64,000 bases of DNA from Bacteroidales bacterium (GCA_017962615.1 JAGCUZ010000067.1:1017-65016); one strand, 5' to 3'; positions 11,443 to 39,561 are shown, numbered from the stretch's first letter. Notes: a model not told the origin generated them from the letters alone. Program-made: numbers and translations.

Positions 11443-11483
11443 CGGCAACCCTATGAATCTGTCTTACTTTAATACTTGAAGAT

Positions 11484-15189: not shown

Positions 15190-15292
15190 TCGAGGGCGCG
15201 TACCTCCGGCACGCTTTATCTATCGGGCACGCCTGACCCCAGACTGCGCTGCGCTTGTCAGGGGTTATTGAGGGCAAGCCTCTCCGAGGCTT
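15190..15292 (+). repeat. Three-hairpin GC-rich module, copy A
   Basis: Contains GCGTACC-TCC-GGCACGC, CCCCAGAC...GTCAGGGG and AAGCCTC-TCC-GAGGCTT. The module is repeated at 15443-15545 and, inverted, at 46174-46276. Confidence 0.85.
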
Positions 15293-15442
15293 TCGAAGAA
15301 CGCTCCGAGACCGCATCGAAGCACACCGAATAAAAACAAAAGCCGGAACGAAAAGGAACAAAATCCGAAACGAGTAAGAACAGAAACCGAAACGAAGAAA
15401 GGACGAAAACAAATGACAACAGCTTCAAATATGACGGACACT

Positions 15443-15545
15443 TCGAGGGCGCGTACCTCCGGCACGCTTTATCTATCGGACACGCCTGACCCCAGACTGC
15501 GCTGCGCTTGTCAGGGGTTATTGAGGGCAAGCCTCTCCGAGGCTT
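15443..15545 (+). repeat. Three-hairpin GC-rich module, copy B
   Basis: Copy of 15190-15292 inside the second 253-bp unit. Confidence 0.85.
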
Positions 15546-15769
15546 TCGAAGAACGCTCCTAGACCGCATCGAAGCACAACGAATAAAAACAAAAGCCGGA
15601 ACGAAAAGGAACAAAATCCAAAACGAAGAAGAAAAGAAACTGAAACGAAGAAGAACAAAATCCAAAACGAACAAGAAAACAAACAAAAACAAGCAATATA
15701 GAGAGCTGGAAACGGAGAGGGCGAGAACTGATAAAACACTAAACAAGACTAAACCCGAGGAGGAGTAAC

Positions 15770-18700
15770 ATGATGAGAACAAACAACAATATGACCGAGA
15801 ACAGAAGTATGTTGAACAACAATATGACCGAGAACAGAAGTATGTCAAACAACAATATGACCGAGAAAAGAAGTATGTCGAAAATGAAAGTGATGAAGTA
15901 TGGTGCGGCGGTGTGCATGCTGGCGGCTATGATGGCGCTGGGCACACCCGCGGGCATGGCGCAGGGTTATGCGCCCAACTCGACCGGCACGGGTACTGTG
16001 ACCAACAGCAACCCGGGTTATGCCATCTACAACGGCACGTATTACATCGGCGGTTCGTCGATAATGGGCTCGCGCACGTTCCAGCCGCGTAGCTGTGTGT
16101 GGACGTCGACCAACGACAAATGGAAGAATAGCGCCGACTACTACCTGAGCTTTGTGGCTGGTCTGTTCTCGTCGGGTCTTGGCTTGACGTCGAATCTTCC
16201 CGACGCTACGTCCTATTTCATGTCGGGAACCGAGAGCGGCACCACGGGAAGGTATCTGTATTCGGTCTTCGACGGCGATAAGCAGTACATGACCTACGGC
16301 AGCAAGTGGATACAGTCGAGCACCGACTCGGCCGCCTGCGTGTTTACGATAGCCAAGCATGAGTATACTCCCACGTGGCAGTCGCCTGTGATAGGATGTA
16401 ACAGCGAGCTGTACCCCGGCAATATTCAGCTCACTGTCTCGACTGCGGCGAGCCTGAACCCCGAGATGGCGTATGTGGATTATGAGTTCTGCAACAACGC
16501 TCATCACTACTACCTGGCCGACAACGTGACGGCCTTGGCCACTGCATGTCCTGCCGCCACGTTCAACTATGTGTGGACGATGACGGGCGTCGACAGCCTG
16601 TATGCCACGCTGAACAGCAGCACGGGCGTGCTGAGCTATGTGAACCCTGTGCCAACCGAGACAGAGGTGACGATAACGCTGACGGCCACGAGCCGTACCT
16701 ACGGGCAGGTGCTTACGGGCACCAAGCGTGTGACGCTGAAGCCGCTGGTGCTTACCAGCGCAAGTGAGGTGTCATCGGGAATCTTCCACGTGTATGCCCT
16801 GCGCAACATGGGGACAGGCGAGTACCTGCGCGACAAGCAGGATGCGACAATGCACTACGTGGCGGCGCAGAGCGGCAACCTTGCCGACTCGGTGACGCAC
16901 GGCGTCATGGGCTGGTACTTCATGGATGCCGGCGCCGGCTATGTGTACATACGTAACTACCAGACGGGTGCTTACCTGTACTGCAACTACACCGCCGGAG
17001 CGCGTGAGCACAGCATACTGGTGAGTGCCGAGATGCCTGCGGGCAACAGCGGCAAGTTCCTCCTCGATGCTATCCGCAACGAGAACGGCATTGGTATGGC
17101 CATAAAGCCTTATGGAACCACGGGCCTGTCGGTGTATCCCTATTCGACCAACAGCGGCGACGCCGGAACCTACTTGGCAACAGCATCGGCCACGGCGCTG
17201 TGGCAACCTCAGATTGTACAGATGCTGCGCAGCATAAGCACCACGCCGGTGCAGCTGGCCGCCCAGCAGAACGTGGCCCTCGGCGCCATCACGCCCGACG
17301 GCGGCAGCGTGCCTTACGGCGGCGGCGACCTCTTCACGGTTACGCCGTCGGCGCTGACGGTGAACCCCGTGATCGAGCGTCCCTCGTACCGCGAGTACCG
17401 CCGCAACGACAACGTGGCGCGCTACTATTGGAGCAGCACCGAGCAGAGCGAGAACCTGTCGTTCCACAGCAACGCCCCCGAGGTGATAAGCGCCGAGGGC
17501 GGGTGGAGCGGCACCATGGTGCAGACGCAGGTGACGCGCTACCACTGGACGCTTGCCGACTACAACGGCACCAACGCGCTCGAAAACCTGTCGTTTGCCG
17601 CCCACACGGCCCGCGCCGACACCACGGCGGCCCGCCGCAACAACGGCAACGGCGAAATCACAGTGTACAACTATCACCAGAACGCCAACCTCACGACGCG
17701 CCGCCAGGCCACGCTGAGCGTGGAGGCCATATACGAGAACGTGGACGCGCTGGGCAACACCTTCACGTTCCGCAGCGCCACGTCGAGCACCACGGCGGGA
17801 GCCGTGCAGTCACTGTCGCTGATTGAGTACACCACCAACGCCCGCGACAGTATATACGCCTACTGCCTTGTGAACTTCAACAGAGGCGCGCTGAGCGACA
17901 CCATCACCGGCACGCGCCGCAACGCCAACGCCACGACGGCCAACACGGTGACCGTGAGCGGCGGCCAGAATACCGCCGACAGGTACTGGTACCTGGTGCG
18001 CACGGCCGACAACGACGGGTCGGTGTATGTGGTCAACCTGCTCACGAAACGCTACCTGTACTGCACGGGTACGGCAGGCAACAACACCGTGACGACGCGC
18101 TACAGCGCCACGGCGCCCGCCGAGTCGAACTACAAGTTCACGATGAGCAACGTTACGGTCGACGGCATCGGCTACCTGCGCCTGTCGCCCAAGAATGCCG
18201 CGGGCTACTACGTGCGCAGCAACGACGCCAACAACAGCGGCAACATCAACATGACCAATGCAGGGTCGGGCGATGCGTACAACTACACGCTGTGGCGCAA
18301 CTACAAAGAGCTGGTGTGTGTGATAGCACCGCAAGTGAGCAACGTTGAGTTGCTTACCGCTACCCTCGACGCTGCGGTCGACACCATGCTCACAACCACT
18401 GGCGAATACCGCTATGGAGCCAGCTGTGCCATAGTCCCTCCCCACTACATGCTTAATGGTTACAACTACTACTACACAGTGGCCAACGGAGTGTGGACGA
18501 GAGGAACGGGCCAGACCATAATAGCCACCACCGACCAGCCGTATGTGCCAGGCATAGCCCAAATTGAATGGAGCCTGCGTGCCGGAGCGCGCGACGGTGC
18601 TGTGGTGGCCGGCGGCAACTATATTGACAACGGCAACACCACCAACAAAGCATATATCAACTACAATACGCTGGCCACAGGCCACGGTATCGACACGCTT

Positions 18701-21700
18701 GAGGCACATTTCACATATGCGGGCTATCCCGATGCATCGGTCCAACAGTGGCTGATACACTACGGCGGCACGGCGGCGCCTACGTCGATAACGGTGACCC
18801 CCGAGGTGGTGGGCACCGAGACGCGCCTGCCGTACAGTCTGACCTACGAACTCGAGCCGTCGTATGCCTATGACAGCGTTGTGTGCACCACATCTGACAA
18901 CACCGTGGCGCCTGTGAGCGGCTGGTCGCGCGGCGGCCGTATCAACCTCACGGCAGGCAACAGCCTGGGCATAGCCACCGTTACGCTGACTGCCTACGGC
19001 CGCGGCTTGTCGACGGGCGTGACGGCCACTGTGACTGTCAACACCTACACGGCCTGCGCCACGCCGTCGTACACCGACGGAGCCGCCTATTTCCACGGCG
19101 AGACGCTGAAGATAAGCAACGGCACCGAGAGCGGAGCCAACGTTGACACGATATACTACACCACCAACGGTACAGACCCGACGGTGGAGGGTTCGTCGAG
19201 CATCCTGTCGGGCGGCAGCATATCGGTGGCCGAATGTGAGGACGGCGCTATTGTCAAGGCGCTGGCCTGGCGCGACGGCCACGCCGAGTCGGACATAGCG
19301 CAGTACACCGTGAACCGCTACGACGCGCCCGAGGTTACCGACCACGTGTCGAAGAACCAGCTCGACGTCAAGAACGGCGAGCGTGCGGGCGACGGCACCT
19401 CGCATGTGCGCTACACTGTGAACGGCCTTGCGCCGCAGTACAGCACGCCCACCACGGTGACCGGTGCCTCGGCCGACACCGCAGTGAGCATCGCCGTGCT
19501 GGCGCGCGGTACCGCCGTGTCGCTGCGCACCTACGGCGACACCAAGTATCCGTCGGAGATGGTGAAGAGGAACATAATGCGCTACACCAAGCCGCATATC
19601 GACAACTACACGCCCTACAGCGACGCCCTGTCGACCAACCTTACGGGCCGTATCTACTCCAACGGCGGCTCGTGCATATACGTGAACTCCGACAAGTTCG
19701 AGGTTGACGGCGTCACGCTGAAGGACCCCAACCCGTGGGACCCCACAACCTACACTATCAAGGTCAGTACTGGAACTAACATAAGTCTGGCGGTGGGTCG
19801 CATCAAAGCCGTTGCCGCAGTGTGCAACACCGAGGGAGTGCGCGGCGAGGTGCTCTACACGTCGCGAGTGGCCGTCATCGACCAGAACTACACGCCCTAT
19901 ATCGCCTTTCAGTACACCGACGGTACCAACGAGCGCTTCCTGTCGCTGAACCACGAGACCCGCCAGATGGAGACCTCGACAGAGTTCGACCAGTACTGCC
20001 TGTGGAAACGAAATCTGAGCAGCTTCATATCGCAGACCTTCAACAGCACCACATATTATCTTGGTGTGAACAGCGACAACAGGTTGTTCATCACCACCGA
20101 CACCAACGCGGCAACCCGCTTTGTTGACTGGGACAACAAGCTGTACCGCTTGACGAGAGACGGGCGCTTCGTGTCGCCCACGCAGGTGGTGCAGCTCGGC
20201 GGCAACGGAGTGTGGAGCACCACGATGGTTATCGACGGCGTGAACTCGCAGATAGCCTATCTGGTTAAGACCGATCAGAGAGACGAGAGCGAACACCGCG
20301 TGCTGAGAGACTTCTACATAGACTCTATAGCATCGGACAGCACCGGCAAGGCCTACGACGCCTACAGCCTGCATAAATACCGCACATGGCTGGCTATGGA
20401 CCAGAGCGGCGAGCGCTACAGCCTGAGCGTGCAGCCACACGTAAGCTACAGAACCCATACGCTGCCCGCCTATACATATTATTATTTCGACGACCGCACA
20501 AGCACGAGCAACAACTTTGTGTACTACAGCTCGCACTCGTACAGAAGCGAGATGGACCTGCCGCACACGGAGCGTGACGAGAACAGCACGGCGAGCACCA
20601 ACGTGACCTACCACTGGGTGCTTACGGGCAACGAGGCGGGAGCCTTTGCGTCGGTGTCGAGCACCACCAACAAGCAGATTGTGCAGCGCACCGCCACGGC
20701 CGTCGACAGGCCTAAGAGAGCCCGCCTTACGGTGTGGGCGCGCTACGACGACGGCGAGACGGCCATGAATGCCTACACCGACACGGTGACGCTTATAGCC
20801 GAGTCGCGTACCACGCTGCTTACCTCCAACACCGGCGACGGCTTCCTGAACGACCGCGTGTATGTGCTTGTCAGCTACGCCGACACGGCCTACCGAGTGA
20901 GTTTCTCGGACGGCAGCGCCAACGGCGTCGACAATCCCGCTGTGCTTTCGGTGCGCGCGGGCCACAACAGCCTGTGGCGTATGCGTGCTGTGCAGGACGG
21001 TGCAAACTACTATTACACCTTCAACAGCATCAACAGCGGCAACCCGCTGGTGTGGAACCACGACACGAGCAGCGTGCAGGACAACCCCGCAGTGTATGTG
21101 GGCCGTCCCGCTGTTGCCGCCGACAGCCAGTTTGTGCTGACGCCTTATGCCGATGCCGAGAACGGCGTGTACTTCACCCTCGAGCCGCGTCGTGTGGCCA
21201 CCAACCATCCGTACCACTACCTCTCGCTGACGCCCTACGGCGCAGCCTTCAGCGAGAACAATTCGCTGCGTCTCATCAACTATCACCGAAGCAACAACCT
21301 CTACTACGTCAACCAGTGGGTCAACTCGTACTACGACAGCCCTGTGTCGGCCTTCGAGCTGTCGCGTCTGCAGCTGCGTACGCCCAAGATGCCCGAGCCT
21401 GGCATATACATGGACGAAAACGGCATAGTGTCGCTGGTCGACTCGGTGTCGATACTCAACAGTGTAGATGTTACTATATATTATAAGCTGTGCCGTCTTG
21501 GCGGCAGCTGGAGCGCCGACTGGCTCACATACTACGAGGCCGACAAGCCGCGTCTGGAGCTTGGCGACAAGATAAAGGCCTACAGTGTGGCGACCGGCAG
21601 CTACTCGTACTTCCTGCCGTCGGAGGTTACCGACGAGTTTACGGCCCTCAAGGTGTCGACACCTGTGATATACAGCAACGGCAACTTGATAGCCTTCGAG

Positions 21701-30700: not shown

Positions 30701-33700
30701 GCCACCTACGTCAAGATATACGAGACACCGCGTGTGGGTCACGTGTACGGCGGCGGCAACGGCGACTACACCTACTACGACGACCAGGCGTATGCAGCAC
30801 TGGCACTTACCAAACCACACCAGAAATCGACCTACATCGATATAAAGATTGACAGGACACTGCGCGAGAACCATGCCAACGCAGGCCGCCCGATCAGCGG
30901 CTACGTGATGCAGGCCTTCGGCGGCGGCAACGCGGCCACCGTCGACACGGCGAGAGTGCATGTGTACGGACTGGGTCTTGTCGACACCCTGTTTGGCGGC
31001 GGCAACAGCGCCACGGTGACCAGGATGGCCCGCATACTGCTTAACGCCAACCCAGTGCGTACAGGCTCGGGCAGCACCCAGAACACCGACAACATCAACA
31101 ACGTGAACACCCTCTTCGGCGGCAACAACGCTGCAGCCATGAGCATCATGCCCGCCATCGACCTGAACAGCGGTATCGTTGACAAGCTGTATGCCGGCGG
31201 CAACGCGGGAGCCATGCTTGCCCGCCAGACCGTCACCGACCTGTTCGGCCGCAGCCTTGGCAACGTGAGTACCTACCTGCTGGTGAACAGCGACTCGCTG
31301 ACGGTGCGCACCGCCCTTTACGCAGGCTGCAACTGCGCCCGCGTGGCCGGAGGTACCTTCGTCGACGTGCGCAAGACCACCACACAGGCGGCGGCAGGCC
31401 GCACGGTGTACGGCATCGGCAGCCTCTTCGGCAGCAACGACATCAGCGACACCGTGAAAGAGGCACGTATCGACATGACCGGCGGTTATGTGCATAACCT
31501 CTTCGGCGGCGGCAACGGCCAGTACAACTACACCCGTCAGGGTAACTTCTACGTGGTGACCCCCTACGGCGTGCCCTACAACGGCGTGAACGCCTTTGTG
31601 GACCGCAGCCCCGGCCGTCCCTATGTGGCGACCACGCACGTGAACGTGATGGGCGGCACTATCGACAACAACATCTACGGCGGCGGCTATGCCGGAGACT
31701 GCGGCAACACCTACCTGTTTGTCAACGACACGGTGACATACAACGGCCATCAGGTGAGCGCCACGGGTACGGCGCGTGTTAGCGGCAAGATATTCGGCGG
31801 CGGCTATGGCGACGAGACGATGATTGGCAACAAGGCCTACAGCAATGCCCACGTGGGCAACGTGACGGGCACCGCCACCACCGACCTGTACCACCTGCAC
31901 GAGCTTGGCGAGGCTTACGCCTACGGCGGCGGCAACGCCGGTGACGTGAACAACACATGCTTCACCGTGCACCCGTCGTGGAACCACTCCTTCGTGAACA
32001 TCTACGGCGGCTGCAGAGCTTCGCACGTGAAGGGCACCGCCAATACCTATATCAACGCCACCGACACCACCATGGATGTAGCACAGGCGCTGTACGGAGG
32101 CAACGACTTCGGCGGCACTGTGGCTAACAGCAACCTCGTGGTGCGCGGCGGACGCTACACCAACATCTACGGCGCAGGCAACGGCGACTACAACTATTAC
32201 GCCGACCCGGCGATAACAGCCCTGCCCGGCGGCACACAAATAGACACCGTGCCGGTGAGCCAGCGTGTACGCACCACCATCTACAATGCACATGTGATAC
32301 GTAACGCCTACGGCGGAAGTAACATGGGCTATGTGATGACAGACTCGGCGTACCACAGCAACGTGGCCGACTATGCCCGCATTGAGCTCAACGTACACGG
32401 CGGTATGTTCGAGCGCAGCATCTTCACCGGTTCGCACGGTAAGGCAGGCGGCAACCAGTTGGCCTACGCCTTGAAGCAGTTCAACATGGACGGCGGCAAG
32501 GTGCTGATATCAGTCTACGGCGGTTCGGAGAACGTCAACGATGGATACCCGGCCGAGTGCCATTCGCCCTCGAACACCACACGCCGTCCCAGCTCGGTGC
32601 TCAACTTCACCGGCGGCGAGATAACCAACAACGTTTACGGCGGCGGATATCTGGGACGTATATACGGCTCGGTGTATATCAACGTGGGCGCCCAGGCAGT
32701 GAACGACTGCCCGGTGTGGACCACCCGCTACGAGACCTCGCCGATGATGGGCAGCAGGGAGTACACCGGCAGCGGTACCGGCTATGACGTATACAAACCC
32801 ACCTTCGTGACCACCGACGAGGCCGACACAGCCTCTAACCTCAAAGCCAACGACCTGTACCTGCGTCAGTCGATATACAACGGTTCCGACTGGGGTACCG
32901 GATCGGGCGAGTATGTGTTCAACCACGTGGGCTTCTATGGCGGCGTGAGCAACATACTCATTGACGGTACGGGCTACAACACCTCGTTCTCGGACGAAGG
33001 CTCGTCGCTGCCTGCTATGGACATCTATTACTCGATTATCGGTTCGGGTACCTCATGCGAGGGCGGCGACATAAGCCGTAAGATTATCATGCGCAACTAC
33101 GGCGAGTACACCTGTAATGGCAACGAACCTGCCTTCTCTAAGGAGATATTCAGCGTGCAGCGTGCCGACTCGGTGATCTTCGACAACGTCAACGTGGCAA
33201 TACATGGAGAGCAAGATGCCTACACGGCATTCCTCTCGCCCAAGTACAGCATGTGCCGTGTGGACACCGTGATATTCCACGACGAGAACATTGTAGCACT
33301 GAAGGCCCCGGCGGTGTTTGTAGGCAACATGCGCTTCGAACATGCTGACGGCTCTCTGGTGAACCGAAGCGAGGATATGTCGACGATGTACGGCTACTCT
33401 ATAAATCCCGACGCTCCTCAATACGCGGGAAGCGCCTTCACGGCGGCCCGTGCCGCTGCCGAGGCCCGCTTCCCGAGCGGCATGGCCAACAGGCAGGACA
33501 GCATTAACCGCTACATGGATACGGTGTCGCTGCTTGAAAACGTATGCGATTCCATACCCATCTGTGTGAAGATGCGCAGCGACATGCCCTTCACGAAACT
33601 CTACGTGGTTGACGGTGTGTATGTCGACATACTCGGCTTCACCGACAACGGCGGCACCGGCGAGAACGCCAACGACGCCTACGGCAGCATCGACGGCTAC

Positions 33701-36700
33701 TGCTTCCTCTATTCTGCCCCCGGTACCGAGGCCTATATCTCGGCGCGCCACAAGACTCCGCAGGATAACGCCACCGACGGCGGCTTCTTCTCGTCGTGCG
33801 ACCGCGAGAATAAAGTGGAGTGCAGCTTCAACACCTCGTGCATCGAGCTTGGGTTCGACAACTACCCAACCGCTGGCTACCGTACATGGGTGCTGGGCTC
33901 GGGCGAGAAGTCGCGCAAGCGCCAGGTGACCATCGTGGCGCACTCGGATGTGCGCAACCTGCCCGGCAGCAACATGAGGATTGATATTCCGTATAAGAAG
34001 ACCGACCTGACCGACTCGACCGAATCGCTGCACTTGGCCTTGGCTCATGCCAATCTTATGCTCCCCCCAATCCCCGTGGGTCACTACTTCACCATCGACG
34101 CCATGTATGTGGACCAGGCCAACGACGGCCAGATGCGTCTGCTTAAGGCTGCAGTAGGTGAGGATGGCAACCGTGCGGTATGGAAATATATGAACGACGC
34201 CGTTCCCACGCCCGGCAGTGGTATTCCGGTCGACGGCCGCGACATATCAGCAGATCCCGACTATACCTTCGGCCTTATCTTCATGACCAAGAACCGCTTC
34301 GGTTCACCCTCGGTGGACTGCTACCCCGAAGGCGACGGCATGCGGTGCTATGACCACTCGCTGGTATCGGGTAACTTGAACTATGAAGAGATTGCAGGCT
34401 TCAAGTCGCCTGCCATTGTAGCCGGCGGTCAGATAGGTCTGCCTCAGTTGGAATTCCTCCTTACCTACGACACCAACTTCACCACCACTATCTCGCGCGA
34501 CGTGGTGTTCCTCATGGTTGAACGCGATCAGGAGGGTGTGCGTGTTGCTCCCCTCGAGGTTTCGGTTACCATTAACACCGTTATCAAGGACTTCAAGGAC
34601 AAAGATGTCTCCGTGCTCGGAATGTTTAACGACGGTATAACCGACATCTATATGCGCAAGGTAATTATGCCCGCATCTCTCAATCGCCGCGAGCTCTACC
34701 TTGACACCATAGAATGGGAACCGTACAAGGCTGACCAGCACACGCCTGATGTTTTCCACCTGACCAACGTGAGCCGCATGGCCGGCACACTCGACAGCAC
34801 ACGCTTTGCCGTGACGGTGGAACCCGCAGAGGATGTGATGATAGACACTCTGGCGAGTATGGGATGGAACACTGTGTTTATACCCTATATCGACGTGTTC
34901 GACTACTGCCGCCCGCCGGCGGCCGATACGCTGTACAAATACCAGGCCGACCTGGTGGCAGGTAATTCGCGTGGCGCTTATATGGGCATTCTCGACGGCC
35001 GTGCAACGGCGGCACTCGACGTCACCCTGCACTTCAACGGCAACCTGTTGTACCCGGTCAAGGACACTATAGGTGTCATAAGACTGAAGTTCTCTTATGC
35101 GGAAGGTAGCAGGGACGGTACGTTCAATGTCAACATCTACGTGAAGACCCGCGACAAAGGCGACACCATATACCTTGCTTCGGCCGACCGGGTGGTCCGC
35201 GACGGCATAACGCTGTATCCCTACAACAGGCAGAACGGTATATACGACGGCGGTATGCACTTGAACTACAACGAAGCAAACGGCAAGACGCCTACAAGAT
35301 ATCTGCAGAACTTCGACGACGCTCTGAGCCCGCTGGTATACATAGAAGGCGACGTGTTTGCAATCATCGACACCCTGAAGTTCCAGAGCGACCGCAACAT
35401 CGTGCTGAGAGGTCAGGACTACAGCATCATGCAGGTAATACGCTATTCAGGCAGCCATTATACCTTCCCTGGCGAGGCGTGTGCTTACAGGGGTCCGATG
35501 GTGATGATAGAGGGCGACGGCAAACTAACCACCTACAATATGCGCTTCGATGGCTCTGGTGTTTCGAGAATCAAGCCAGTATACACTACAAGACAGGCCT
35601 ATCCGGATTCGTTGTGCAACATATTTACCAATGCGCAAGGTGCAACACGCTACTCGTACAAGCCTGACAAGAGGGTGAAAGACACGACGTTCTCGAACGG
35701 TCCGGTGTTCCTCGTGCGCAACGGCGGTACGCTGACGCTCAACAACAAGACGTCGGTGTTGCACAACTTCAACATGGCCACCGGCTTAGGCCGCGACACC
35801 CTGCAGGGTGCGGCAATACGCGTCGTTGGCGGTCACCGCAAGCCTACGGTAACCCTCAGCAACCAGGTTTTGATTGCCGAGAACGTGGTGAGCGACGCGG
35901 CGGCTCTCACCAACCACAAGCCCTCGGGTGCGGTGCACCTGCAACGCGCCAGTCTGCAGCTCGGCTCGTCGTCGGCAACATCGTGCGTCACCATCACCGA
36001 CAACTTCTACTCGAACGGCGATAGCAAGTTCTGGAAGGTGAGTCCGACGGATGACAACAAGTACCTGTTCGACACGACCAATATATGGCGGTCGCGCAGC
36101 AACGTATACCTGACGCGTACGCCGGGAAGCCCCGACGCTGTAATCAACGACGACATAAGCGATGCGGTGAGCTTCCGCTACGACATCAAGAGCCGTACGC
36201 GCATAGGCGTCAACAAATGGTTCCCGGGTCCCACTACCCGCGACACCATACAGGTGGCCCGCGTCAGCGTGTCGAAGCAGCTCTATGCCAAGCACGCCTA
36301 CGAGAACGGGAACTTCATCAACGACTCGGCGGCCTACACGGGCGATGTGTTCTACCACTCCACCATCGGTCCATATGTGCTATACCTGCACCGTTGCGCT
36401 TCGTTCAAAAAGCAGAAGCTCGGCGACCTGCTTGCCGACCTGCCCAACGGCACACGCCTGCTGCAGGATTCGGTGATGGAGTACCGCACCGGTATCAACA
36501 GCTCGTGCCCCAACGGCACCGACAGGATGATATACCACGTAACGGGCGGCTTCTACCCCTACACCTACACATGGTCGATAGAGGATGGCAGCGGTAACGA
36601 CGTAACGACGCTACGCACCAAGAAGACCCCGTACACCAACGACCAGGTGAAGAAAGCACTGTCGGAGAACAATCCGGAGCCGATGCTGCTGTCGAACAGC

Positions 36701-39157
36701 GACACGGCGGTGCTGTCGGATATGAAACTGTCGCTCGGCGGCCGTACGGGCTCGTTCTACTATCATGTGTCGGCAAAGGATTTGGCAGGCTGCCGGCTCG
36801 ACAAGTGGTTTAATGTCAACGTGCTCAAATCGACGACCGACATGGTTACTGTCGACGGACACGACTATGCCGCACCGGGACTGTATTACCGCTCCAACAA
36901 CAGCGACTACATCTGCACCGACACGAACAACCACGGCTCCACGACAAGCGGTGGCATCAAGCTGCTGCGCACCTTCAAGGCCCTCTCCTTCGAGGTCGTG
37001 GCGGCACCGGCGGGCTACGGCTCGGTATCGGCCAATATAGCCGGCGAGAGTGTCAACGTGGCACCGGGCAACGACTTCCCGCACTGCGAGGGTGAGCAGA
37101 TCAACCTCGTGGCCACTCCGACCGATTCGCGCTACAGCTTCCTTATGTGGGACTACGACCCGCAGGACAACGTGTCGTCGGTGTTCACCATGCCGCGCTC
37201 CAACACCCAGCTCACAGCCTACTTCGGCTGCCGCGGCTACTGGAAGGATCAGGTCCACACCAACCCCGGCAGTTCGCACTACCGTACCGACTACAACGGC
37301 AACGTACATATCTATTCGGCCAACGGTCTTGCCTGGCTCATAAGTACCGTGAACGGCTTGAACGGACAGCCTGCACACTCGTTCTTCTTCGACACTGTGT
37401 ATATCCACGACGCTTCGCACGGCGGCGTAGACAACTACGACATGAAGACATACCGCTGGACGCCCGTGGGTACCCAGCGCCACCCCTTCAAGGGTACTAT
37501 GGTGGCCGACGACAACGTGGTAATCTCCGGTGTCACCATCAACGAGCCGCAGCACGATTATGTAGGCTTCTTCGCCTGCGCCGACAGTGCTCGCATCCAC
37601 AACGTGAACCTGAGGACTGTGATGGCCATAGGCTCGCAGTATGTGGGTGGTCTGGCAGCCAACGTGACGCACTCCAGCATCAAGGGCTGCAAGCTTACGG
37701 GCGAGAACAGTGAGTCGCCAATCATCTCGACAGGCTACATGTCGGGAGGTCTGGTGGCCAACGCCGACAACGTGAAGTTCGACAACCTCGACGTGTCGTG
37801 CAAGTTCATCGGCACCGCTATCTACAGCGGCGGCGTGGTGGGCTATGGCAACAACTCGCGAGTGGACAACGCTGCGGTGTGGGATGTCAACCGAATGGCG
37901 GCACTCTACCACGGCGGCGCAGCTGGCCGCATGGTGGGTGTGCAGACAACGACCGACACCATCTATACCGACACCACGGCTTTCGACTCTACAACGGTCG
38001 ACACCACCGGCAATGGCACCGGCGGCAACACTCACAATGCAGCCAAGAGCTTGTCGGGTTCGAAACGCATAATACAACACTACAGCTCGGGCCTGAACAA
38101 CGTGTACGTGCACGTACAGAGCGAAGGCAAGGGCCAGCGTGTCGGCGGTCTCATAGGCTATGCCACTGGCGCCGAGATGCAGAACAACTATGTGTATGGC
38201 GAGGCGCAAGGCTCAGTGTCGTCAGGAGCCTTGGGTGCCATGATAGCACGCAATGTGACGGTCGACAACTGCTTCTATCAGGAAAGCACGGCACGGCAGG
38301 CTATGGGCATGTCGCTCTCGACGGGTACTACAACCAACGTGTCCGACTTCTCGGGCTCTGGTAACCAAGTGCGTGTGAGAGACGCCGTGGGCGGCGTCGA
38401 CAACCTTACCCGCGTGCTCAACAACTGGGTGCGCCGTCAGCCGTCGGGCAGCTACAACACGTGGCGGTCAGACCTGCAGGGTGTCAACAACGGCTACCCG
38501 CTCTTCGGCATACCCGACATAGTGCCGGTGTACGACACCATCTACGACGTGGCTTGCGACGTGTATCACTGGAACGGCAACGACTACATGCTCAGCGGCG
38601 TGTATGAACGCCACAGCACCGACTCGGCCAACTTCGTCGACAGCATCGTGCTGCTCAACCTGTCGGTGTACAACAGCACCACCGAGCAGGTAGCCGACAG
38701 CGTGGCGCTGGGCGAGGACTACAGTGGCTACGGCTTCTTCCTCACCGCCGATGAGCTGCGTGCGCTGCGGTCGGTAATCGACACCAACAGCGACGGCACC
38801 GCAGTGCTGCATATAGCCGACAGCCTGCTCACCACGCACGGCTGCGACAGCATCGTGCTGCTCGACCTCACACTCTTTGTCAAGGGTGGCGGCGGCAGTG
38901 ACGCCATGGAGCCTGTGAAGGCGTTCCCCGTCAGTGTCTATCCCAACCCCACCAACGGACGTGTCACCATAGAGGCCGACGCCCTGCTGCGTGTTGAGAT
39001 ATACGACAACGTAAGTCGTCGTGTTGCCACGGTAACGGCGGGCGAAGGGAACGGCCACAGCGTGCAGTACAACCTCGAAGCACTGCCTTCGGGCGCCTAC
39101 TTCCTGCGCATCGTAACCACCAACGGCACAGCTATCAAGAAACTAATCAAGAGATAA
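15770..39157 (+). CDS. Giant (7,795 aa) multidomain cell-surface/secreted protein with a T9SS C-terminal sorting domain; adhesin-like
   Basis: Single uninterrupted 23,388-nt ORF.
- Signal peptide: MKVMKYGAAVCMLAAMMALGTPAGMA starts at codon 39 (alternative start ATG 15884).
- At least five [FY]Y[TK]xxG..P modules lie at about 19.1-24.0 kb (IYYTTNGTDPT, RFYYTLDGSTVP, NIYYTTDGTTPT, KIFYTLNGDTPT).
- Two GLUG-like regions carry GGLVG/GGVVG/GGLIG motifs.
- About 1,900 aa are [YF]GGGN-x-[AG]-x-V beta-helix-type repeats.
- One segment is InlB-B-repeat-like (AAPAGYGSVSANIAG...YSFLMWDYD).
- The C-terminus is VYPNPTNGRVTIEA...GAYFLRIVTTNGTAIKKLIKR. Confidence 0.9.
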   Translation: MMRTNNNMTENRSMLNNNMTENRSMSNNNMTEKRSMSKMKVMKYGAAVCMLAAMMALGTPAGMAQGYAPNSTGTGTVTNSNPGYAIYNGTYYIGGSSIMGSRTFQPRSCVWTSTNDKWKNSADYYLSFVAGLFSSGLGLTSNLPDATSYFMSGTESGTTGRYLYSVFDGDKQYMTYGSKWIQSSTDSAACVFTIAKHEYTPTWQSPVIGCNSELYPGNIQLTVSTAASLNPEMAYVDYEFCNNAHHYYLADNVTALATACPAATFNYVWTMTGVDSLYATLNSSTGVLSYVNPVPTETEVTITLTATSRTYGQVLTGTKRVTLKPLVLTSASEVSSGIFHVYALRNMGTGEYLRDKQDATMHYVAAQSGNLADSVTHGVMGWYFMDAGAGYVYIRNYQTGAYLYCNYTAGAREHSILVSAEMPAGNSGKFLLDAIRNENGIGMAIKPYGTTGLSVYPYSTNSGDAGTYLATASATALWQPQIVQMLRSISTTPVQLAAQQNVALGAITPDGGSVPYGGGDLFTVTPSALTVNPVIERPSYREYRRNDNVARYYWSSTEQSENLSFHSNAPEVISAEGGWSGTMVQTQVTRYHWTLADYNGTNALENLSFAAHTARADTTAARRNNGNGEITVYNYHQNANLTTRRQATLSVEAIYENVDALGNTFTFRSATSSTTAGAVQSLSLIEYTTNARDSIYAYCLVNFNRGALSDTITGTRRNANATTANTVTVSGGQNTADRYWYLVRTADNDGSVYVVNLLTKRYLYCTGTAGNNTVTTRYSATAPAESNYKFTMSNVTVDGIGYLRLSPKNAAGYYVRSNDANNSGNINMTNAGSGDAYNYTLWRNYKELVCVIAPQVSNVELLTATLDAAVDTMLTTTGEYRYGASCAIVPPHYMLNGYNYYYTVANGVWTRGTGQTIIATTDQPYVPGIAQIEWSLRAGARDGAVVAGGNYIDNGNTTNKAYINYNTLATGHGIDTLEAHFTYAGYPDASVQQWLIHYGGTAAPTSITVTPEVVGTETRLPYSLTYELEPSYAYDSVVCTTSDNTVAPVSGWSRGGRINLTAGNSLGIATVTLTAYGRGLSTGVTATVTVNTYTACATPSYTDGAAYFHGETLKISNGTESGANVDTIYYTTNGTDPTVEGSSSILSGGSISVAECEDGAIVKALAWRDGHAESDIAQYTVNRYDAPEVTDHVSKNQLDVKNGERAGDGTSHVRYTVNGLAPQYSTPTTVTGASADTAVSIAVLARGTAVSLRTYGDTKYPSEMVKRNIMRYTKPHIDNYTPYSDALSTNLTGRIYSNGGSCIYVNSDKFEVDGVTLKDPNPWDPTTYTIKVSTGTNISLAVGRIKAVAAVCNTEGVRGEVLYTSRVAVIDQNYTPYIAFQYTDGTNERFLSLNHETRQMETSTEFDQYCLWKRNLSSFISQTFNSTTYYLGVNSDNRLFITTDTNAATRFVDWDNKLYRLTRDGRFVSPTQVVQLGGNGVWSTTMVIDGVNSQIAYLVKTDQRDESEHRVLRDFYIDSIASDSTGKAYDAYSLHKYRTWLAMDQSGERYSLSVQPHVSYRTHTLPAYTYYYFDDRTSTSNNFVYYSSHSYRSEMDLPHTERDENSTASTNVTYHWVLTGNEAGAFASVSSTTNKQIVQRTATAVDRPKRARLTVWARYDDGETAMNAYTDTVTLIAESRTTLLTSNTGDGFLNDRVYVLVSYADTAYRVSFSDGSANGVDNPAVLSVRAGHNSLWRMRAVQDGANYYYTFNSINSGNPLVWNHDTSSVQDNPAVYVGRPAVAADSQFVLTPYADAENGVYFTLEPRRVATNHPYHYLSLTPYGAAFSENNSLRLINYHRSNNLYYVNQWVNSYYDSPVSAFELSRLQLRTPKMPEPGIYMDENGIVSLVDSVSILNSVDVTIYYKLCRLGGSWSADWLTYYEADKPRLELGDKIKAYSVATGSYSYFLPSEVTDEFTALKVSTPVIYSNGNLIAFEATTTTTGEPIEGARFYYTLDGSTVPTSDIGLRFSEPYDTLRANYTVKCVAYADNYLKSDVATLGFTTKLELVMDVTGTSTYNVTLGVINGSVTQGTHYNIYYTTDGTTPTTSSTLYNGQFQLTGYALVKARAITRNPSVCSTSDVVTRFVGKQLYVLNYNANGGTSSDTNFMYVTDGGDLNNDNVPHYTSFVVGPATGNVGGDLFYSYVNDGYLGCHVSGVPIAAVTSAVEASLWIYEPATHRLHTAAGDYVAFDAAQSKWTVCELTDGNPPANHYVNVCFPADTQTHLQDTIVTVTPNELHFSLMQPARWTGAVEGLGINRPEWDVYDMDGNWLSVNSGDTMKVFSSVMATVDSLIRLEHVDLSIRDNVGGSELQSWHHLPDRDRFTARESEVSTEKLVTIDAHRLGGHVVWTFNSTTKRPETNAADRSGAFNSYINYVFVGAPDYDTLCLIRNNTATSGPDFSGRLSVEATVPSGGVSYNFPRQTGYVYAETRDNGNLSISSSQTYKLTAMNDNTRYLSILAGSEADHEYVGDEPIIGLQSHYNRYALWQFRQVRNSTDNSRVWHIYNYFQPEDSVVWINNWCWEKDTYGSIYLYNPVSNAAYAWKVSHPDPIGGGNSTKCDFAINLNKGGYVTISPYNNNGTETWAKRSSQRLSLIENSNTATSTRYSHIGLAYTYWGKGHYNPSNDTTTFYKCRWKLAPATLVEPLVSMNPSGEVTFEHDFLTAPDAELRNATKIFYTLNGDTPTSTESATNMIYDPANKPVMTYGQTLKAVAYINYQSTEQTSPVVTFTPERCVAPTIAEGEGGTFVINHTAGDSVKYSLNSAVIAWDCGAPDCKLYEDGRQISMEDGDIYRMVAFKHNYFESEIASYYHVNKLELNLAYTPSTTDGVTTTAPEVALTVPGALPGFYAIYWTVDNSVDMAHLNQASLPATVHVYTGPVNDTLTVLPRNTSTIFRAVAMSTGTVTYYEASDVVQQPVMWGFGSGQTLQYGTGTQSDPYQIHTAGDLMIVAGNTALRSGYFKVMEDIDATGCSVPSIGGADFSGNWDGNYKVIKGLVNPMFESTYDAWVYNTMLDAANISATGDYCGAIVGQAKGDTRVFNSGVIAKSGVSRVSGTRYVGGLVGYLADDSRVVNCYNYASVSASAANGYAGGLVGYQVTASDVSSIGAIVFNCMNYGDVLSVQTVAPVVGGNATSNVAPNGINTYLYYAHEVELTGTTIAYNAAIDVEKRYIERYPLYRYILNSNLEKSGYFINSVLSSQNVGKWVLDRNVAPYPVVLCPMGRRTTGEFNKYIVSNSATYPSTEGNAYEGKRLGMLNVTINRGAYGTGAASTTVAIPITDIDTPNFDYNYYKIQLPYYQEYFDYSNSEAKIVTGWKVTSVTKNGSTLTSFVSGDLQHYNYADRSNPTKDIYDATNNKYRVFAQGGYYNVPEGVTAITIEAYWAKAIYLQDQYYDVTFNASDYGGRTNVTFYGTRPTQYHGQTVKTSIDAALNALTNENTVYDQAIVLVGNCHYRHERGNNGWYNSTSKPFTIMSADDDKDLEPDNVMVHQHEGRRNINPVRFDFMGNPGLSMTSMPTGSATQAIHGIWQPNGHFEITETCIARYSQFEYYYKNNSQPIILNGGIFENMLSTKSDPATALSYIQMGGHVWMRLFTPGCHSDVSKMTKHCPIIVTGGEYEEFYLSGMTNPNAPENNEDPYLFANGGRFGTYASGGMEKIPANVTVECDHIIADEFYGGGINAAKPITGNISVTVNNSKIGLYVGGPKFGDMSSGKTVTTNATNTVFGTYFGAGYGGTAIYRDRVCQDPVNSPNYNWSVCFTGDSPTVSWGGRSGVLNYKVNRGKKFNNGVLVGYDWDLLPGSGGISSLKSVARLYYHYATLSRANTRGVSNTLVGCTVKNDFYGAGYVGTTTGDVNTTLTDCTIEGSAYGAGYSAKVPMCGVDAVPTVYPYYTVQTSYYDVPPVNDKTYYTWNTVSGSIPNGTDCLDNTDYLIKTTASTSGLGTVTGNVSLTIDGNSYINGDVYGGGDEASVSGNTTVVIKDLTYVDGDVFGAGNLAVVTGNTSLTVGSADGSDKPYLYGDVYAGGNQADVGAAASNNSTTSVTINTGAMGSVYGGGNEGSVFGSTVVNVNGGWIGYEYSAEGDVNRENPVKVPVDFGDTRLTDVVCGAGYGIGTTVTKTTTVNIGNASSMAGDVHIFGSVYGGGEEGQVGGGYIRRNVKSGENVSSGYYTMDPADSLIKSMTGVATAPCDTFYYKKYDPSTYGAGWDNITSRVTVKSDGTNKVFVEGAVFGAGRGFYSEYEEHKGKYSTYANHSPEKEIRGTIYGNTIAEVGTVGQDTSMITIKTMNYYTTWEEAKSYGLVGSSALSGAVFWEQSLFVKDADYGAIVELTPGILGNKINAEGRDGSKVLNFDPGRLDVVKNVQYYLNTGRVSVAGGGEEGAVVGNYNGTYSSSGKGGNSTVIVHSGTLGDVQYHTRSGENFGEVNGCVYGAGISADIDGVSRIIFDGPTIHCRGDVYAGGCMGAVHAYKRASAGTAVTATQVTFEQGWARNVHAGSNLAPTPAGNNAVLTIGKAEWSDDGYRESEWNNTLVSESCYGGNGFSGSDAVTYVDMYSGKVGYVLSGYDINLVGDAVNKNHRHADNGVVAAPFDVPKNVVVSNHQGELLYEGALYGAGFGPQAHVRSSNVTLHGGSVRNGVYGAGEMGAVIAMTGDGEPLGSYRHTKVESDGTVKNVWTPYYAGATANVEMRGGIAAMVCGGGRGYSNFLQVEGDLPGAVCGNTNVTISGGTVDTIKYDYDLGGGSVFGGGLEGVVTGNTTVTISGGHVKGRVYGGGRGFRGAIEGKYYDSSENIKDRAAVNAGAVLGNTSVSLARDCEAIVEKGVYGGGEGCNYITPTASGQRKDTVGVVYGNATVDIAGGVIGLGLNYAGVSENGSYAGGRIAPVYGYADMLVHGTAEVASVFGGNDISGFVGGRGRSNTVSLYRSEVDGSSPLLSRDSTATYVKIYETPRVGHVYGGGNGDYTYYDDQAYAALALTKPHQKSTYIDIKIDRTLRENHANAGRPISGYVMQAFGGGNAATVDTARVHVYGLGLVDTLFGGGNSATVTRMARILLNANPVRTGSGSTQNTDNINNVNTLFGGNNAAAMSIMPAIDLNSGIVDKLYAGGNAGAMLARQTVTDLFGRSLGNVSTYLLVNSDSLTVRTALYAGCNCARVAGGTFVDVRKTTTQAAAGRTVYGIGSLFGSNDISDTVKEARIDMTGGYVHNLFGGGNGQYNYTRQGNFYVVTPYGVPYNGVNAFVDRSPGRPYVATTHVNVMGGTIDNNIYGGGYAGDCGNTYLFVNDTVTYNGHQVSATGTARVSGKIFGGGYGDETMIGNKAYSNAHVGNVTGTATTDLYHLHELGEAYAYGGGNAGDVNNTCFTVHPSWNHSFVNIYGGCRASHVKGTANTYINATDTTMDVAQALYGGNDFGGTVANSNLVVRGGRYTNIYGAGNGDYNYYADPAITALPGGTQIDTVPVSQRVRTTIYNAHVIRNAYGGSNMGYVMTDSAYHSNVADYARIELNVHGGMFERSIFTGSHGKAGGNQLAYALKQFNMDGGKVLISVYGGSENVNDGYPAECHSPSNTTRRPSSVLNFTGGEITNNVYGGGYLGRIYGSVYINVGAQAVNDCPVWTTRYETSPMMGSREYTGSGTGYDVYKPTFVTTDEADTASNLKANDLYLRQSIYNGSDWGTGSGEYVFNHVGFYGGVSNILIDGTGYNTSFSDEGSSLPAMDIYYSIIGSGTSCEGGDISRKIIMRNYGEYTCNGNEPAFSKEIFSVQRADSVIFDNVNVAIHGEQDAYTAFLSPKYSMCRVDTVIFHDENIVALKAPAVFVGNMRFEHADGSLVNRSEDMSTMYGYSINPDAPQYAGSAFTAARAAAEARFPSGMANRQDSINRYMDTVSLLENVCDSIPICVKMRSDMPFTKLYVVDGVYVDILGFTDNGGTGENANDAYGSIDGYCFLYSAPGTEAYISARHKTPQDNATDGGFFSSCDRENKVECSFNTSCIELGFDNYPTAGYRTWVLGSGEKSRKRQVTIVAHSDVRNLPGSNMRIDIPYKKTDLTDSTESLHLALAHANLMLPPIPVGHYFTIDAMYVDQANDGQMRLLKAAVGEDGNRAVWKYMNDAVPTPGSGIPVDGRDISADPDYTFGLIFMTKNRFGSPSVDCYPEGDGMRCYDHSLVSGNLNYEEIAGFKSPAIVAGGQIGLPQLEFLLTYDTNFTTTISRDVVFLMVERDQEGVRVAPLEVSVTINTVIKDFKDKDVSVLGMFNDGITDIYMRKVIMPASLNRRELYLDTIEWEPYKADQHTPDVFHLTNVSRMAGTLDSTRFAVTVEPAEDVMIDTLASMGWNTVFIPYIDVFDYCRPPAADTLYKYQADLVAGNSRGAYMGILDGRATAALDVTLHFNGNLLYPVKDTIGVIRLKFSYAEGSRDGTFNVNIYVKTRDKGDTIYLASADRVVRDGITLYPYNRQNGIYDGGMHLNYNEANGKTPTRYLQNFDDALSPLVYIEGDVFAIIDTLKFQSDRNIVLRGQDYSIMQVIRYSGSHYTFPGEACAYRGPMVMIEGDGKLTTYNMRFDGSGVSRIKPVYTTRQAYPDSLCNIFTNAQGATRYSYKPDKRVKDTTFSNGPVFLVRNGGTLTLNNKTSVLHNFNMATGLGRDTLQGAAIRVVGGHRKPTVTLSNQVLIAENVVSDAAALTNHKPSGAVHLQRASLQLGSSSATSCVTITDNFYSNGDSKFWKVSPTDDNKYLFDTTNIWRSRSNVYLTRTPGSPDAVINDDISDAVSFRYDIKSRTRIGVNKWFPGPTTRDTIQVARVSVSKQLYAKHAYENGNFINDSAAYTGDVFYHSTIGPYVLYLHRCASFKKQKLGDLLADLPNGTRLLQDSVMEYRTGINSSCPNGTDRMIYHVTGGFYPYTYTWSIEDGSGNDVTTLRTKKTPYTNDQVKKALSENNPEPMLLSNSDTAVLSDMKLSLGGRTGSFYYHVSAKDLAGCRLDKWFNVNVLKSTTDMVTVDGHDYAAPGLYYRSNNSDYICTDTNNHGSTTSGGIKLLRTFKALSFEVVAAPAGYGSVSANIAGESVNVAPGNDFPHCEGEQINLVATPTDSRYSFLMWDYDPQDNVSSVFTMPRSNTQLTAYFGCRGYWKDQVHTNPGSSHYRTDYNGNVHIYSANGLAWLISTVNGLNGQPAHSFFFDTVYIHDASHGGVDNYDMKTYRWTPVGTQRHPFKGTMVADDNVVISGVTINEPQHDYVGFFACADSARIHNVNLRTVMAIGSQYVGGLAANVTHSSIKGCKLTGENSESPIISTGYMSGGLVANADNVKFDNLDVSCKFIGTAIYSGGVVGYGNNSRVDNAAVWDVNRMAALYHGGAAGRMVGVQTTTDTIYTDTTAFDSTTVDTTGNGTGGNTHNAAKSLSGSKRIIQHYSSGLNNVYVHVQSEGKGQRVGGLIGYATGAEMQNNYVYGEAQGSVSSGALGAMIARNVTVDNCFYQESTARQAMGMSLSTGTTTNVSDFSGSGNQVRVRDAVGGVDNLTRVLNNWVRRQPSGSYNTWRSDLQGVNNGYPLFGIPDIVPVYDTIYDVACDVYHWNGNDYMLSGVYERHSTDSANFVDSIVLLNLSVYNSTTEQVADSVALGEDYSGYGFFLTADELRALRSVIDTNSDGTAVLHIADSLLTTHGCDSIVLLDLTLFVKGGGGSDAMEPVKAFPVSVYPNPTNGRVTIEADALLRVEIYDNVSRRVATVTAGEGNGHSVQYNLEALPSGAYFLRIVTTNGTAIKKLIKR
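15782..15880 (+). repeat. 33-bp x3 tandem repeat overlapping the annotated 5' end of the giant ORF
   Basis: AACAACAATATGACCGAGAACAGAAGTATGTTG occurs three times with 1-3 changes, encoding NNNMTENRSML/NNNMTENRSMS/NNNMTEKRSMS. Each unit carries two in-frame ATGs. Confidence 0.95.
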
Positions 39158-39272: not shown

Positions 39273-39467
39273 ATGAAGAGAAAATACACGACCCCGTCTA
39301 TCGAAATCCGCAGCTACGCTGTGGAGGCGGGCTTTGCGGTAACACTGCTTCTCGAATCGGACAACCGTCTGGAATGGGCTGGCGACCACGAGACCATGCG
39401 CAGCCAGGAGGAGCTCTCCGAATTGACCGACAACACCGGCGAGTACTCGGCGGGCTATTGGGAATAG
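39273..39467 (+). CDS. Hypothetical small protein (64 aa)
   Basis: ATG-initiated ORF (MKRKYTTPSIEIRSYAVEAGFAVTLLLESDNRLEWAGDHE...SAGYWE) in the gap between the giant gene and the lipoprotein gene, on the same strand. The same 24-mer precedes it and the lipoprotein start. No recognisable family. Confidence 0.4.
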   Translation: MKRKYTTPSIEIRSYAVEAGFAVTLLLESDNRLEWAGDHETMRSQEELSELTDNTGEYSAGYWE

Positions 39468-39496: not shown

Positions 39497-39561
39497 GATA
39501 CCCTGGGATTGCCTATGTGGGGCAACGTATAAACGTATCAACATTAAACATATCAACATCA

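Follow-up and report, generated by a model that had tools for sequence, protein, structure and literature searches.

The 64,000-nucleotide stretch of DNA analysed in this study (GCA_017962615.1 JAGCUZ010000067.1:1017-65016, in the following referred to as the window) originates from an uncultured gut/rumen Bacteroidales bacterium and contains an intact gene of 23.4 kb (15770..39157, plus strand), which encodes a protein of 7,795 amino acids (aa). According to its sorting signals, its domain composition and structural models of two of its parts, this giant protein is probably a surface fibre of the adhesin type, which is anchored at the C-terminus and carries lectin-like modules at the distal end of a beta-helix stalk. 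A preliminary description of the sequence had suggested a giant adhesin or surface fibre, and the fold likenesses reported below, from which a function can be inferred, fit this suggestion.

The reading frame starts with ATG and comprises 7,795 sense codons followed by a single terminal stop codon. By our own arithmetic, the random stop rate for this base composition is about 0.035 per codon; at this rate, an open reading frame (ORF) with so many codons can practically not arise by chance. The 7,795-aa product was also called on two metagenome contigs in ENA (52,395 and 52,717 bp), and it is found at NCBI as MBP5536575.1, encoded on a 66-kb contig, with 7,766 aa and the start placed by PGAP at M30. 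The protein is thus already public, with automatic annotation only, a record absent from the preliminary description. Comparison of ENA contig L001 with the window showed that positions 31981-52562 are identical except for one single nucleotide polymorphism at 46577, outside the giant gene; the 3' 7.2 kb of the gene (31981-39157) are base-identical. When the protein was compared to itself in chunks by BLAST, repeats showed at most 35% identity over at least 65 aa, and the sole closer match was a motif of 24 aa (58%). At the DNA level, repeats within the gene were 60-87% identical and at most 62 nt long. Because these internal repeats are too diverged, an assembly collapse or a chimera is unlikely. 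With one terminal stop codon, three records and five collinear relatives (see below), the ORF is confirmed to be real and uninterrupted, as had been claimed before.

The precursor has a mass of 843.6 kDa, and about 829 kDa remain without the signal peptide and the C-terminal domain. As regards the former assessment that proteins of this size are rare in bacteria, the protein is large, but with 7,795 aa it belongs to the class of giant proteins of 5-10 kaa (thousand aa) and lies far below record sizes (10.1101/2023.11.21.568195).

Both ends of the protein carry putative sorting signals. A Sec/SPI signal peptide was recognized by inspection at aa 39-64 (15884..15961; this and all other features within the giant gene lie on the plus strand), with the cut predicted at GMA/QG. 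It starts at M39 with MKVMKYGAAVCMLAAMMALGTPAGMA, followed by QG; judged by eye, its n-region is basic and its h-region hydrophobic, and an Ala/Gln junction is located at 64/65. This junction fits the Q-rule of the Bacteroidetes (PMC5837995), and the N-termini of homologues likewise end in an A/Q junction. At the C-terminus, a complete T9SS (type IX secretion system) sorting domain of type A was detected (aa 7723-7795; 38936..39154). PF18962 matched over model positions 1-74 of 75 with 41.8-44.9 bits (cutoff 27), and the type A model TIGR04183 matched at full length and at the extreme C-terminus with 39.7 bits (cutoff 23). The signal peptide at codon 39 and the T9SS domain had both been proposed in the preliminary description. 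Judged from its sequence, the giant protein has the sorting domain and (by eye) the Sec signal peptide that characterize type A T9SS cargo.

A second gene for type A cargo and a gene for a GldH lipoprotein are present in the window, which makes it plausible that this organism uses the T9SS. The former (11484-12224) lies just downstream of rpoC and encodes 246 aa with a TIGR04183 match of 39.7 bits and no other recognisable domain. The latter (51061-51534; PF14109 with 125.8 bits) has genes for PSP1 and peptidase M16 as neighbours and hints that the lineage keeps gliding-associated gld genes.

Domains were sought in Pfam (E up to 5) and NCBIfam (E up to 0.01) with curated cutoffs. The N-terminal part, comprising about 2,900 aa, consists of lectin-like, Ig-like and CHB_HEX_C modules and shows patchy conservation. 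Two beta-trefoil-like modules resembling ricin-type lectins (aa 340-490, 16787..17239, and aa 696-853, 17855..18328) form clear, diverged internal copies of each other. For the first one, the scores stayed below the cutoff with PF24208 (20.3 of the required 27 bits) as well as with PF14200 (12.3 of 25.6 bits). The stretch of aa 382-492 aligns with residues 423-545 of the homologue P0077, whose own RicinB_lectin_2 match (PF14200, residues 372-444, 25.7 bits, cutoff 25.6) adjoins and partly overlaps the aligned stretch. A Big_2-like Ig domain follows at aa ~1005-1075 (18782..18994; PF02368 with 21.6 bits, cutoff 22.8). In addition, an internal hidden Markov model (HMM) together with Pfam revealed five copies of the CHB_HEX_C_1/Fn3_assoc module, two at aa 1098-1179 and 1186-1267 (19061..19570), two at aa 1976-2040 and 2049-2125 (21695..22144) and one at aa 2693-2770 (23846..24079). 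The scores for the whole protein were 87.7 bits for Fn3_assoc and 59.8 bits for CHB_HEX_C_1 (cutoff 22).

At NCBI, the protein is named chitobiase/beta-hexosaminidase C-terminal domain-containing protein. This name is misleading, because only the accessory module is matched, and should not be taken as an enzyme call. An assignment to the GH20 chitobiases/beta-hexosaminidases was rejected due to the lack of a GH20 catalytic domain, and no glycoside hydrolase (GH) family was found for the giant protein in the Pfam and NCBIfam scans.

In the middle of the protein, aa 2968-4045 (24671..27904) represent an embedded copy of a protein family of about 1,100 aa, which is very common in Bacteroidales (1,309 matches at E < 1e-5). 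This region aligns end to end with P0001, P0008, P0012 and others at 38-44% identity. It is predicted to contain a GLUG beta-helix domain (aa ~2979-3260), followed by a beta-sandwich and by the initial rungs of a probable right-handed beta-helix. In the giant protein itself, this first GLUG block scored below the threshold (PF07581 17.4 bits, PF05342 14.1 bits), whereas its homologues pass the threshold of Peptidase_M26_N with 38-45 bits (cutoff 27.7). An AlphaFold model of aa 2960-4110, for which 60 family proteins served as alignment, reached a pLDDT of 85.2 and a pTM of 0.87 and consists of a GLUG beta-helix and a beta-sandwich followed by a long all-beta solenoid. With Foldseek, the first ~280 residues of this model matched the IgA1-protease structures 7jgj, 6xja and 7uvk with a probability of about 1.0; for aa ~3445-4110, weak matches with low TM-scores to EtpA, EspP, Hbp, Ag43, pertactin and tailspikes were obtained.

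The proteins of about 1,100 aa of the Peptidase_M26_N/GLUG type (P0008, P0012), which share the predicted fold with aa 2968-4045 over their whole length, are encoded by stand-alone genes. Unlike the giant protein, they possess their own signal peptide and lack a T9SS C-terminal domain. Their genes lie downstream of a gene for polysaccharide synthesis and upstream of one for a GTPase, a context unrelated to that of the giant gene. In the loci L013 and L014, for example, a stand-alone gene for 1,125 aa is followed by an unrelated GTPase gene. In L013, the region downstream of the 1,125-aa gene (11379-11538) is T-rich and contains tandem CAATTTT repeats, followed by a TATCTTTG promoter box for the next gene.

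The stalk itself is presumably formed by irregular hYGGGN repeats, of which about 32 clear motifs were found at aa 3713-5627 (26906..32650). The start of this region (to aa 4110) is modelled as a beta-helix, which may continue along the repeats. The segment just past the last motif (aa 5720-5860) is rich in beta-strands in the model of aa 5720-6900. PF13229 (Beta_helix) did not match the giant protein in the Pfam scans, and sequence searches against the PDB with the two halves of the protein and with a profile of one alignment gave no result.

Furthermore, aa 5720-6900 (32927..36469) form a module without any Pfam match, which was recognized by exhaustive search and by a structural model (pLDDT 75.5, pTM 0.67). 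According to this model, it consists of a helical insert (~5867-5935), tandem beta-sandwiches (~5943-6480) and a strand-rich, beta-helix-like GGAI stretch (~6510-6880). The sandwiches resembled CfaE, LpfD, FimH, CupB6, BspA, SdrD and ClfB in Foldseek, which are of the pilus-tip/MSCRAMM type (E 2e-7 to 1e-3), and no enzyme fold was present among the matches of this model. Neither this module nor the embedded copy had been noticed in the preliminary description.

The C-terminal part contains a CPxG..GGFxPYTYxW motif (aa 6913-6935), which we take to resemble SprB-type repeats, a divergent InlB B-repeat (Flg_new_2, aa 7104-7152, 37079..37225, 23.6 bits and thus exactly at the cutoff) and a second GLUG block (aa ~7150-7580, 37217..38509), which PF07581 matched in two stretches with 25.7 bits (cutoff 20.5). 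The mosaic drawn in the preliminary description was thus recovered for the most part. The at least five chitobiase-C/Fn3-associated modules, the InlB-B-like segment and the second GLUG block were found as described. The first GLUG block is backed by its homologues and the model, but not by a Pfam score of its own; the N-terminal lectin-like modules are seen as two internal copies, but lie below the Pfam threshold (20.3 vs 27); and the [YF]GGGN beta-helix repeats appear in the motifs and in the modelled start of the helix, but not in PF13229. As a side observation, the Bacteroidetes sequon for O-glycosylation, D[ST][AILVMT], occurs 71 times in the giant protein, compared with 31 +/- 5 times after shuffling of its residues. 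This excess may point to heavy O-glycosylation or may simply reflect a dipeptide bias of beta-strands.

The module at aa 5720-6900 defines a small, collinear family of putative giant T9SS fibres. Homologues were searched with the giant protein in pieces of 1,200 aa. Among 1.84 billion cluster representatives, 102 relatives of this module were detected (83 at E < 1e-30; median length ~3,700 aa), and a word-indexed database yielded a single relative (P0121) of aa 5700-6900, even with a profile of seven sequences. The C-terminal sorting domain terminates 67 of the 69 family members longer than 2,800 aa, and three shorter members that were scanned contained no Pfam domain besides the C-terminal sorting domain. 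No description of this family was found in the literature searched.

Five members are giants as well (P0127, 6,598 aa; P0130, 7,899 aa; P0131, 7,182 aa; P0133, 6,633 aa; P0148, 7,679 aa), and the window protein ranks second in length among the members observed. Each of these five uncharacterised proteins begins with Met, ends with a C-terminal sorting domain and can be aligned collinearly to the window protein along more than 5,000 aa (35-43% identity). This collinearity begins at about aa 2,300-2,500 (P0133: aa 1,080), runs to the C-terminus and includes the embedded GLUG-core unit, whereas conservation is poor and patchy in the N-terminal ~2,000 aa (23-28% identity). Six loci in metagenome-assembled genomes (MAGs) of other Bacteroidales species show the same pattern as the window.

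According to the consensus of the family alignment and to the loci L009 and L012, an ordinary member begins with a signal peptide and a GGGN beta-helix of ~1,700 aa; the unique module comes next, then an InlB-B-like repeat and a GLUG block, and the sorting domain closes the protein. In such shorter members (P0125, L009, L011, L012), which share all these parts including the type A domain with the window protein, the beta-helix follows the signal peptide at once, and both the array of lectin and CHB_HEX_C modules and the 1,100-aa unit are missing. The latter is limited to the window protein and the five members above 6.5 kaa. Since ordinary members lack the 1,100-aa unit and the N-terminal array, the giant protein is regarded as an old fusion of three building blocks. 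An erroneous joining of separate neighbouring genes for the 1,100-aa protein and the fibre was considered and rejected, as the fusion is common to the five other giants and the stand-alone gene in L013 and L014 has the GTPase gene, not a fibre gene, behind it.

Sequence and analogy together suggest how secretion, anchoring to anionic lipopolysaccharide (A-LPS), orientation at the surface and binding of glycans could proceed, and which roles the neighbouring genes may play. In Porphyromonas gingivalis, type A cargo is exported by Sec and passes the T9SS; PorU then cuts off the C-terminal domain, and the protein is joined to A-LPS (PMC9143113). Accordingly arranged, the precursor of the giant protein would cross the inner membrane by Sec via the signal peptide at aa 39-64, and its type A domain would be recognized by the T9SS at the outer membrane, where, in analogy to P. 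gingivalis, the sortase PorU would remove the sorting domain and join the new C-terminus to A-LPS. The part closest to the cell would then comprise the second GLUG block together with the InlB-B-like repeat and the module of tandem beta-sandwiches, the glycine-rich beta-helix of ~2,000 aa and the embedded 1,100-aa unit would form a rigid stalk, and the N-terminal ~2,900 aa with their beta-trefoil-like, Ig-like and chitobiase-C-type modules could bind glycans of plant fibre, mucus or other cells at the far tip. A C-terminal tether of the fibre is assumed because PorU would attach the new C-terminus to A-LPS. Such a tether would make the beta-helix the stalk, with the lectin-like array at its far end, and this arrangement suits an adhesin.

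As far as analogy goes, the protein is most like the large T9SS adhesins (SprB, RemA) and the beta-helical adhesins of type V secretion systems. In the latter (EtpA, Ag43, pertactin, Hbp, EspP, Fap2), a beta-helix serves as stalk or binding part, and they were the top whole-chain Foldseek neighbours of the core. They differ from the giant protein by the type V route and the absence of sequence similarity, and the TM-scores were low (0.09-0.14). A long beta-helix combined with modules of the carbohydrate-binding type is also known from giant proteins of Omnitrophota; these are at least 30,000 aa long, belong to another phylum, have no T9SS signal and were proposed to function in predation (10.1101/2023.11.21.568195).

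Several observations weigh against the interpretation as an anchored fibre. None of the core T9SS genes (porU, porV, sprA and others) lies within the 64-kb window, and anchoring to A-LPS would follow only by analogy, as it was shown in P. gingivalis and thus in another lineage. About 46% of the giant protein (aa ~3250-6900) has no Pfam match, and the likeness to beta-helices and tandem beta-sandwiches seen with Foldseek is of a generic kind, with low TM-scores and high root mean square deviations. Finally, an acidic cluster is present in the first rungs of the beta-helix (MSADDDKDLEPD; 26309-26341, aa ~3514-3524). Its pattern S..D...D.EPD is invariant in 61 members of the 1,100-aa family, and the cluster (MSxDxxxDxEPD) could be a candidate catalytic, metal or ligand site instead of a part of a passive stalk.

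This last point leads to the possibility that the protein is a giant surface enzyme, in which an unrecognised lyase, glycosidase or protease site is situated in the 1,100-aa unit or in aa 5720-6900, with the lectin-like modules as carbohydrate-binding modules. Comparison of 61 sequences of the 1,100-aa family showed about 100 invariant positions, among them many charged residues including the acidic cluster, which is typical of metal sites. The right-handed beta-helix is the scaffold of the polysaccharide lyase (PL) families PL1, PL6 and PL9 as well as of GH28, GH87 and GH110, and CHB_HEX_C and Fn3_assoc modules usually accompany glycoside hydrolases. Moreover, carbohydrate-active enzymes are exported by the T9SS in gut and rumen Bacteroidota (PMC11205867). 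Nevertheless, we consider an enzyme unlikely. No catalytic domain was found in the Pfam and NCBIfam scans, even at an E-value up to 5, the profile searches against the PDB were empty, and the weak Foldseek matches to GH110, GH87, PL6 and a rhamnogalacturonase had probabilities of at most 0.06 and E > 0.2. Beside these weak matches, fold likenesses were found only to beta-helical adhesins and tailspikes, to the N-terminal domain of IgA1 proteases and to pilus-tip/MSCRAMM sandwiches. Neither HExxH nor HxxEH occurs in any of the 7,795 aa, which extends to the full length what had been noted before on a partial read. The M26 IgA1 metalloproteases of Streptococcus and Gemella possess an N-terminal GLUG beta-helix like that of the giant protein (Foldseek probability about 1.0 over 250-290 columns), but they also have a catalytic domain with HExxH and another kind of anchoring in the cell envelope. 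As the giant protein shows neither HExxH nor a match to a peptidase domain, its identification as an M26 metalloprotease was rejected.

Two genes downstream of the giant gene, which were missing in the preliminary description, are conserved in relatives. The first one is an ORF of 64 aa (39273..39467, plus strand; MKRKYTTPSIEIRSYAVEAGF...), which was called as a gene on L001 and has no family assignment; homologues are found at the same position in L010 (16320-16520, E 7e-9) and L012 (16699-16842, E 3e-4). The second one (39562..41913, plus strand) encodes a lipoprotein of 783 aa, for which no Pfam or NCBIfam match was obtained. It has a lipobox Cys (LAVGC) and, in its C-terminal part, GLUG-like repeats, which show a weak similarity to the end of the second GLUG block of the giant protein (E 0.003). 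In L007, L008, L010, L011 and L012, which are five of the six related loci and include loci of the family of giants (e.g. L007, L010), homologues of the lipoprotein (27-37% identity) directly follow the giant homologue. The lipobox Cys is invariant in their alignment and is followed by Lys/Asp residues (CRKKDS here; CKKEK, CQKDS, CKKDV, CKDEP and CTKDK in relatives); we take CRKKDS to resemble the surface-lipoprotein export signal of Bacteroidota. A 24-nt element, TATCAACATTAAACATATCAACAT, is located directly ahead of the start codons of both genes (39243-39266 and 39537-39560) and looks like a duplicated translation-initiation region. Both products are probably accessory factors for assembly or anchoring.

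This neighbourhood bears on the question whether the giant protein is instead held by the downstream lipoprotein or released, as a matrix or biofilm fibre or as cargo of outer-membrane vesicles. In favour of this, a GLUG-like lipoprotein gene accompanies the giant gene in five of the six related loci, and T9SS cargo is described as either released or anchored (PMC10202324). Type A domains are, on the other hand, the class tied to attachment by PorU to A-LPS (PMC9143113), and the sequence holds nothing that separates release from anchoring. We regard release or docking instead of A-LPS anchoring as quite improbable. A bolder proposal, likewise unlikely in our view, is that the giant gene, the 64-aa ORF and the lipoprotein gene form an undescribed T9SS-dependent surface-fibre cassette of Bacteroidales from gut and rumen, whose product of ~830 kDa would act as a 'one-molecule pilus'. 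It would have arisen when a GLUG/beta-helix protein of 1,100 aa and a lectin array were fused onto an ancestral fibre of ~3,700 aa, and the surface lipoprotein would dock the fibre to the cell by GLUG-GLUG contacts, instead of or beside A-LPS.

It was also considered whether the protein, rather than being a stationary anchored fibre, is a mobile gliding adhesin. SprB of Flavobacterium johnsoniae is such an adhesin of 669 kDa, which is giant, repetitive and secreted by the T9SS (PMC9143113), and with RemA of the same species a lectin-bearing mobile adhesin is known (PMC11205867). Both share T9SS secretion with the giant protein, which is itself adhesin-like, and the GldH lipoprotein gene lies in the window; the CPxG..GGFxPYTYxW motif, which may resemble SprB-type repeats, also speaks for this possibility. 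RemA is, like the protein proposed here, a surface adhesin with a lectin domain; it is much smaller, its lectin type is another one (rhamnose/galactose-specific), and it moves on the surface (PMC11205867). SprB carries a type B domain and needs the PorP-like SprF, whereas the giant protein possesses a type A domain, has a lipoprotein as neighbour and is larger (844 kDa). Neither the type B model TIGR04131 nor the SprB repeats (PF13573) matched the giant protein in the NCBIfam and Pfam scans, and no PorP/SprF-like gene lies beside the giant gene, where the 64-aa ORF and the lipoprotein gene are found instead. An assignment as SprB-type protein was rejected for these reasons. Since this uncultured gut lineage is not known to glide and GldH alone is no proof of motility, a role in gliding is very improbable.

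The probability that the giant gene results from faulty or chimeric assembly or is a pseudogene in decay is practically negligible: the source MAG is a short-read assembly, in which giant repetitive genes misassemble readily, but the internal repeats are too diverged for a collapse, the product recurs on two separate ENA contigs and in the NCBI record from the 66-kb contig, the 3' 7.2 kb are base-identical on L001, collinear unbroken proteins of 6.6-7.9 kaa exist in five other species-level clusters, and the 7,795 codons contain no stop.

The giant gene is located in the core chromosome, with rplA, rplJ, rpoB and rpoC upstream and Sua5/YciO, DHODH and recR downstream. Between rpoC and the giant gene lie the gene for the 246-aa type A cargo and a gene for a Schlafen AlbA_2 and HATPase_c_4 protein (13039-14697), which is immediately upstream of the putative giant-gene promoter and is putatively an ATP-dependent DNA-binding regulator. 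Synteny of these two genes with relatives was considered and rejected, as they are not conserved there; the only upstream adjacency seen in relatives is that the homologue in L012 also directly follows rpoC. The region of 12-16 kb of the window shows a lower GC content (~0.50) and a strong positive GC skew.

A putative promoter of the giant gene is the -7 box TATCTTTG (14826..14833, plus strand), which was recognized by sequence reading about 940 nt upstream of the start codon. The consensus of this Bacteroidetes promoter element is TAnnTTTG. The box TATCTTTGC is also found upstream of the homologues in L009, L011 and L012, there at a distance of 230-400 nt, so that the putative leader of the giant gene (14826-15769, ~940 nt) exceeds those of the relatives. 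A scan for sigma-70 promoters and terminators was uninformative for a promoter of the Bacteroidota type, and an Rfam scan detected nothing in or around the giant gene; its only match in the window was a tRNA (42742-42829). The leader consists of 65% purines (41% A) with 22-nt repeats and contains a 253-bp tandem repeat (15105..15652, plus strand; 2.2 copies, 96-98% identity). Inside each unit of this repeat, an ORF of ~57 codons (MTTASNMTDTSRART...) is present. The 9-mer TATCTATCG occurs once per unit (15217-15225 and 15470-15478) and also heads a tandem array of ~4 copies (83-88% match) at 39206-39245, just past the stop codon of the giant gene. Three exact matches were counted in the window versus 0.15 expected, and it is possible that this 9-mer is a shared protein-binding site flanking the giant gene.

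Ahead of the ATG at 15770, at a distance of 7 nt, a strong Shine-Dalgarno-like sequence was observed (GAGGAGGAG, 15754-15762). Translation in Bacteroidota mostly proceeds without Shine-Dalgarno pairing, so this sequence is unusual here. Because of it, 15770 is favoured as the real start, despite the start at M30 in the NCBI record. The resulting N-terminal extension (aa 1-38, 15770..15883) may or may not be translated. It contains, before the signal peptide, an in-frame tandem repeat of 33 bp (15782-15882; 3.1 copies, 94% match), which encodes NNNMTENRSM three times and could either belong to the leader or represent an N-terminal extension of variable copy number.

If the giant protein is expressed, it would, with ~830 kDa, exceed SprB (669 kDa) as T9SS cargo, and one may ask by which means a fibre of such a size is dealt with by the translocon and by the attachment complex. 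If the three genes indeed form a fibre cassette, the giant protein would be among the largest cargos inferred to pass the T9SS translocon. The family presents a clear case of a giant protein built by domain fusion, in which a full copy of an abundant stand-alone protein is situated inside an older fibre. So far, the giant family has been found only in MAGs of Bacteroidales, at least two of them from deer guts, and its proteins likely serve to attach the bacteria to mucus, to partner cells or to plant fibre.

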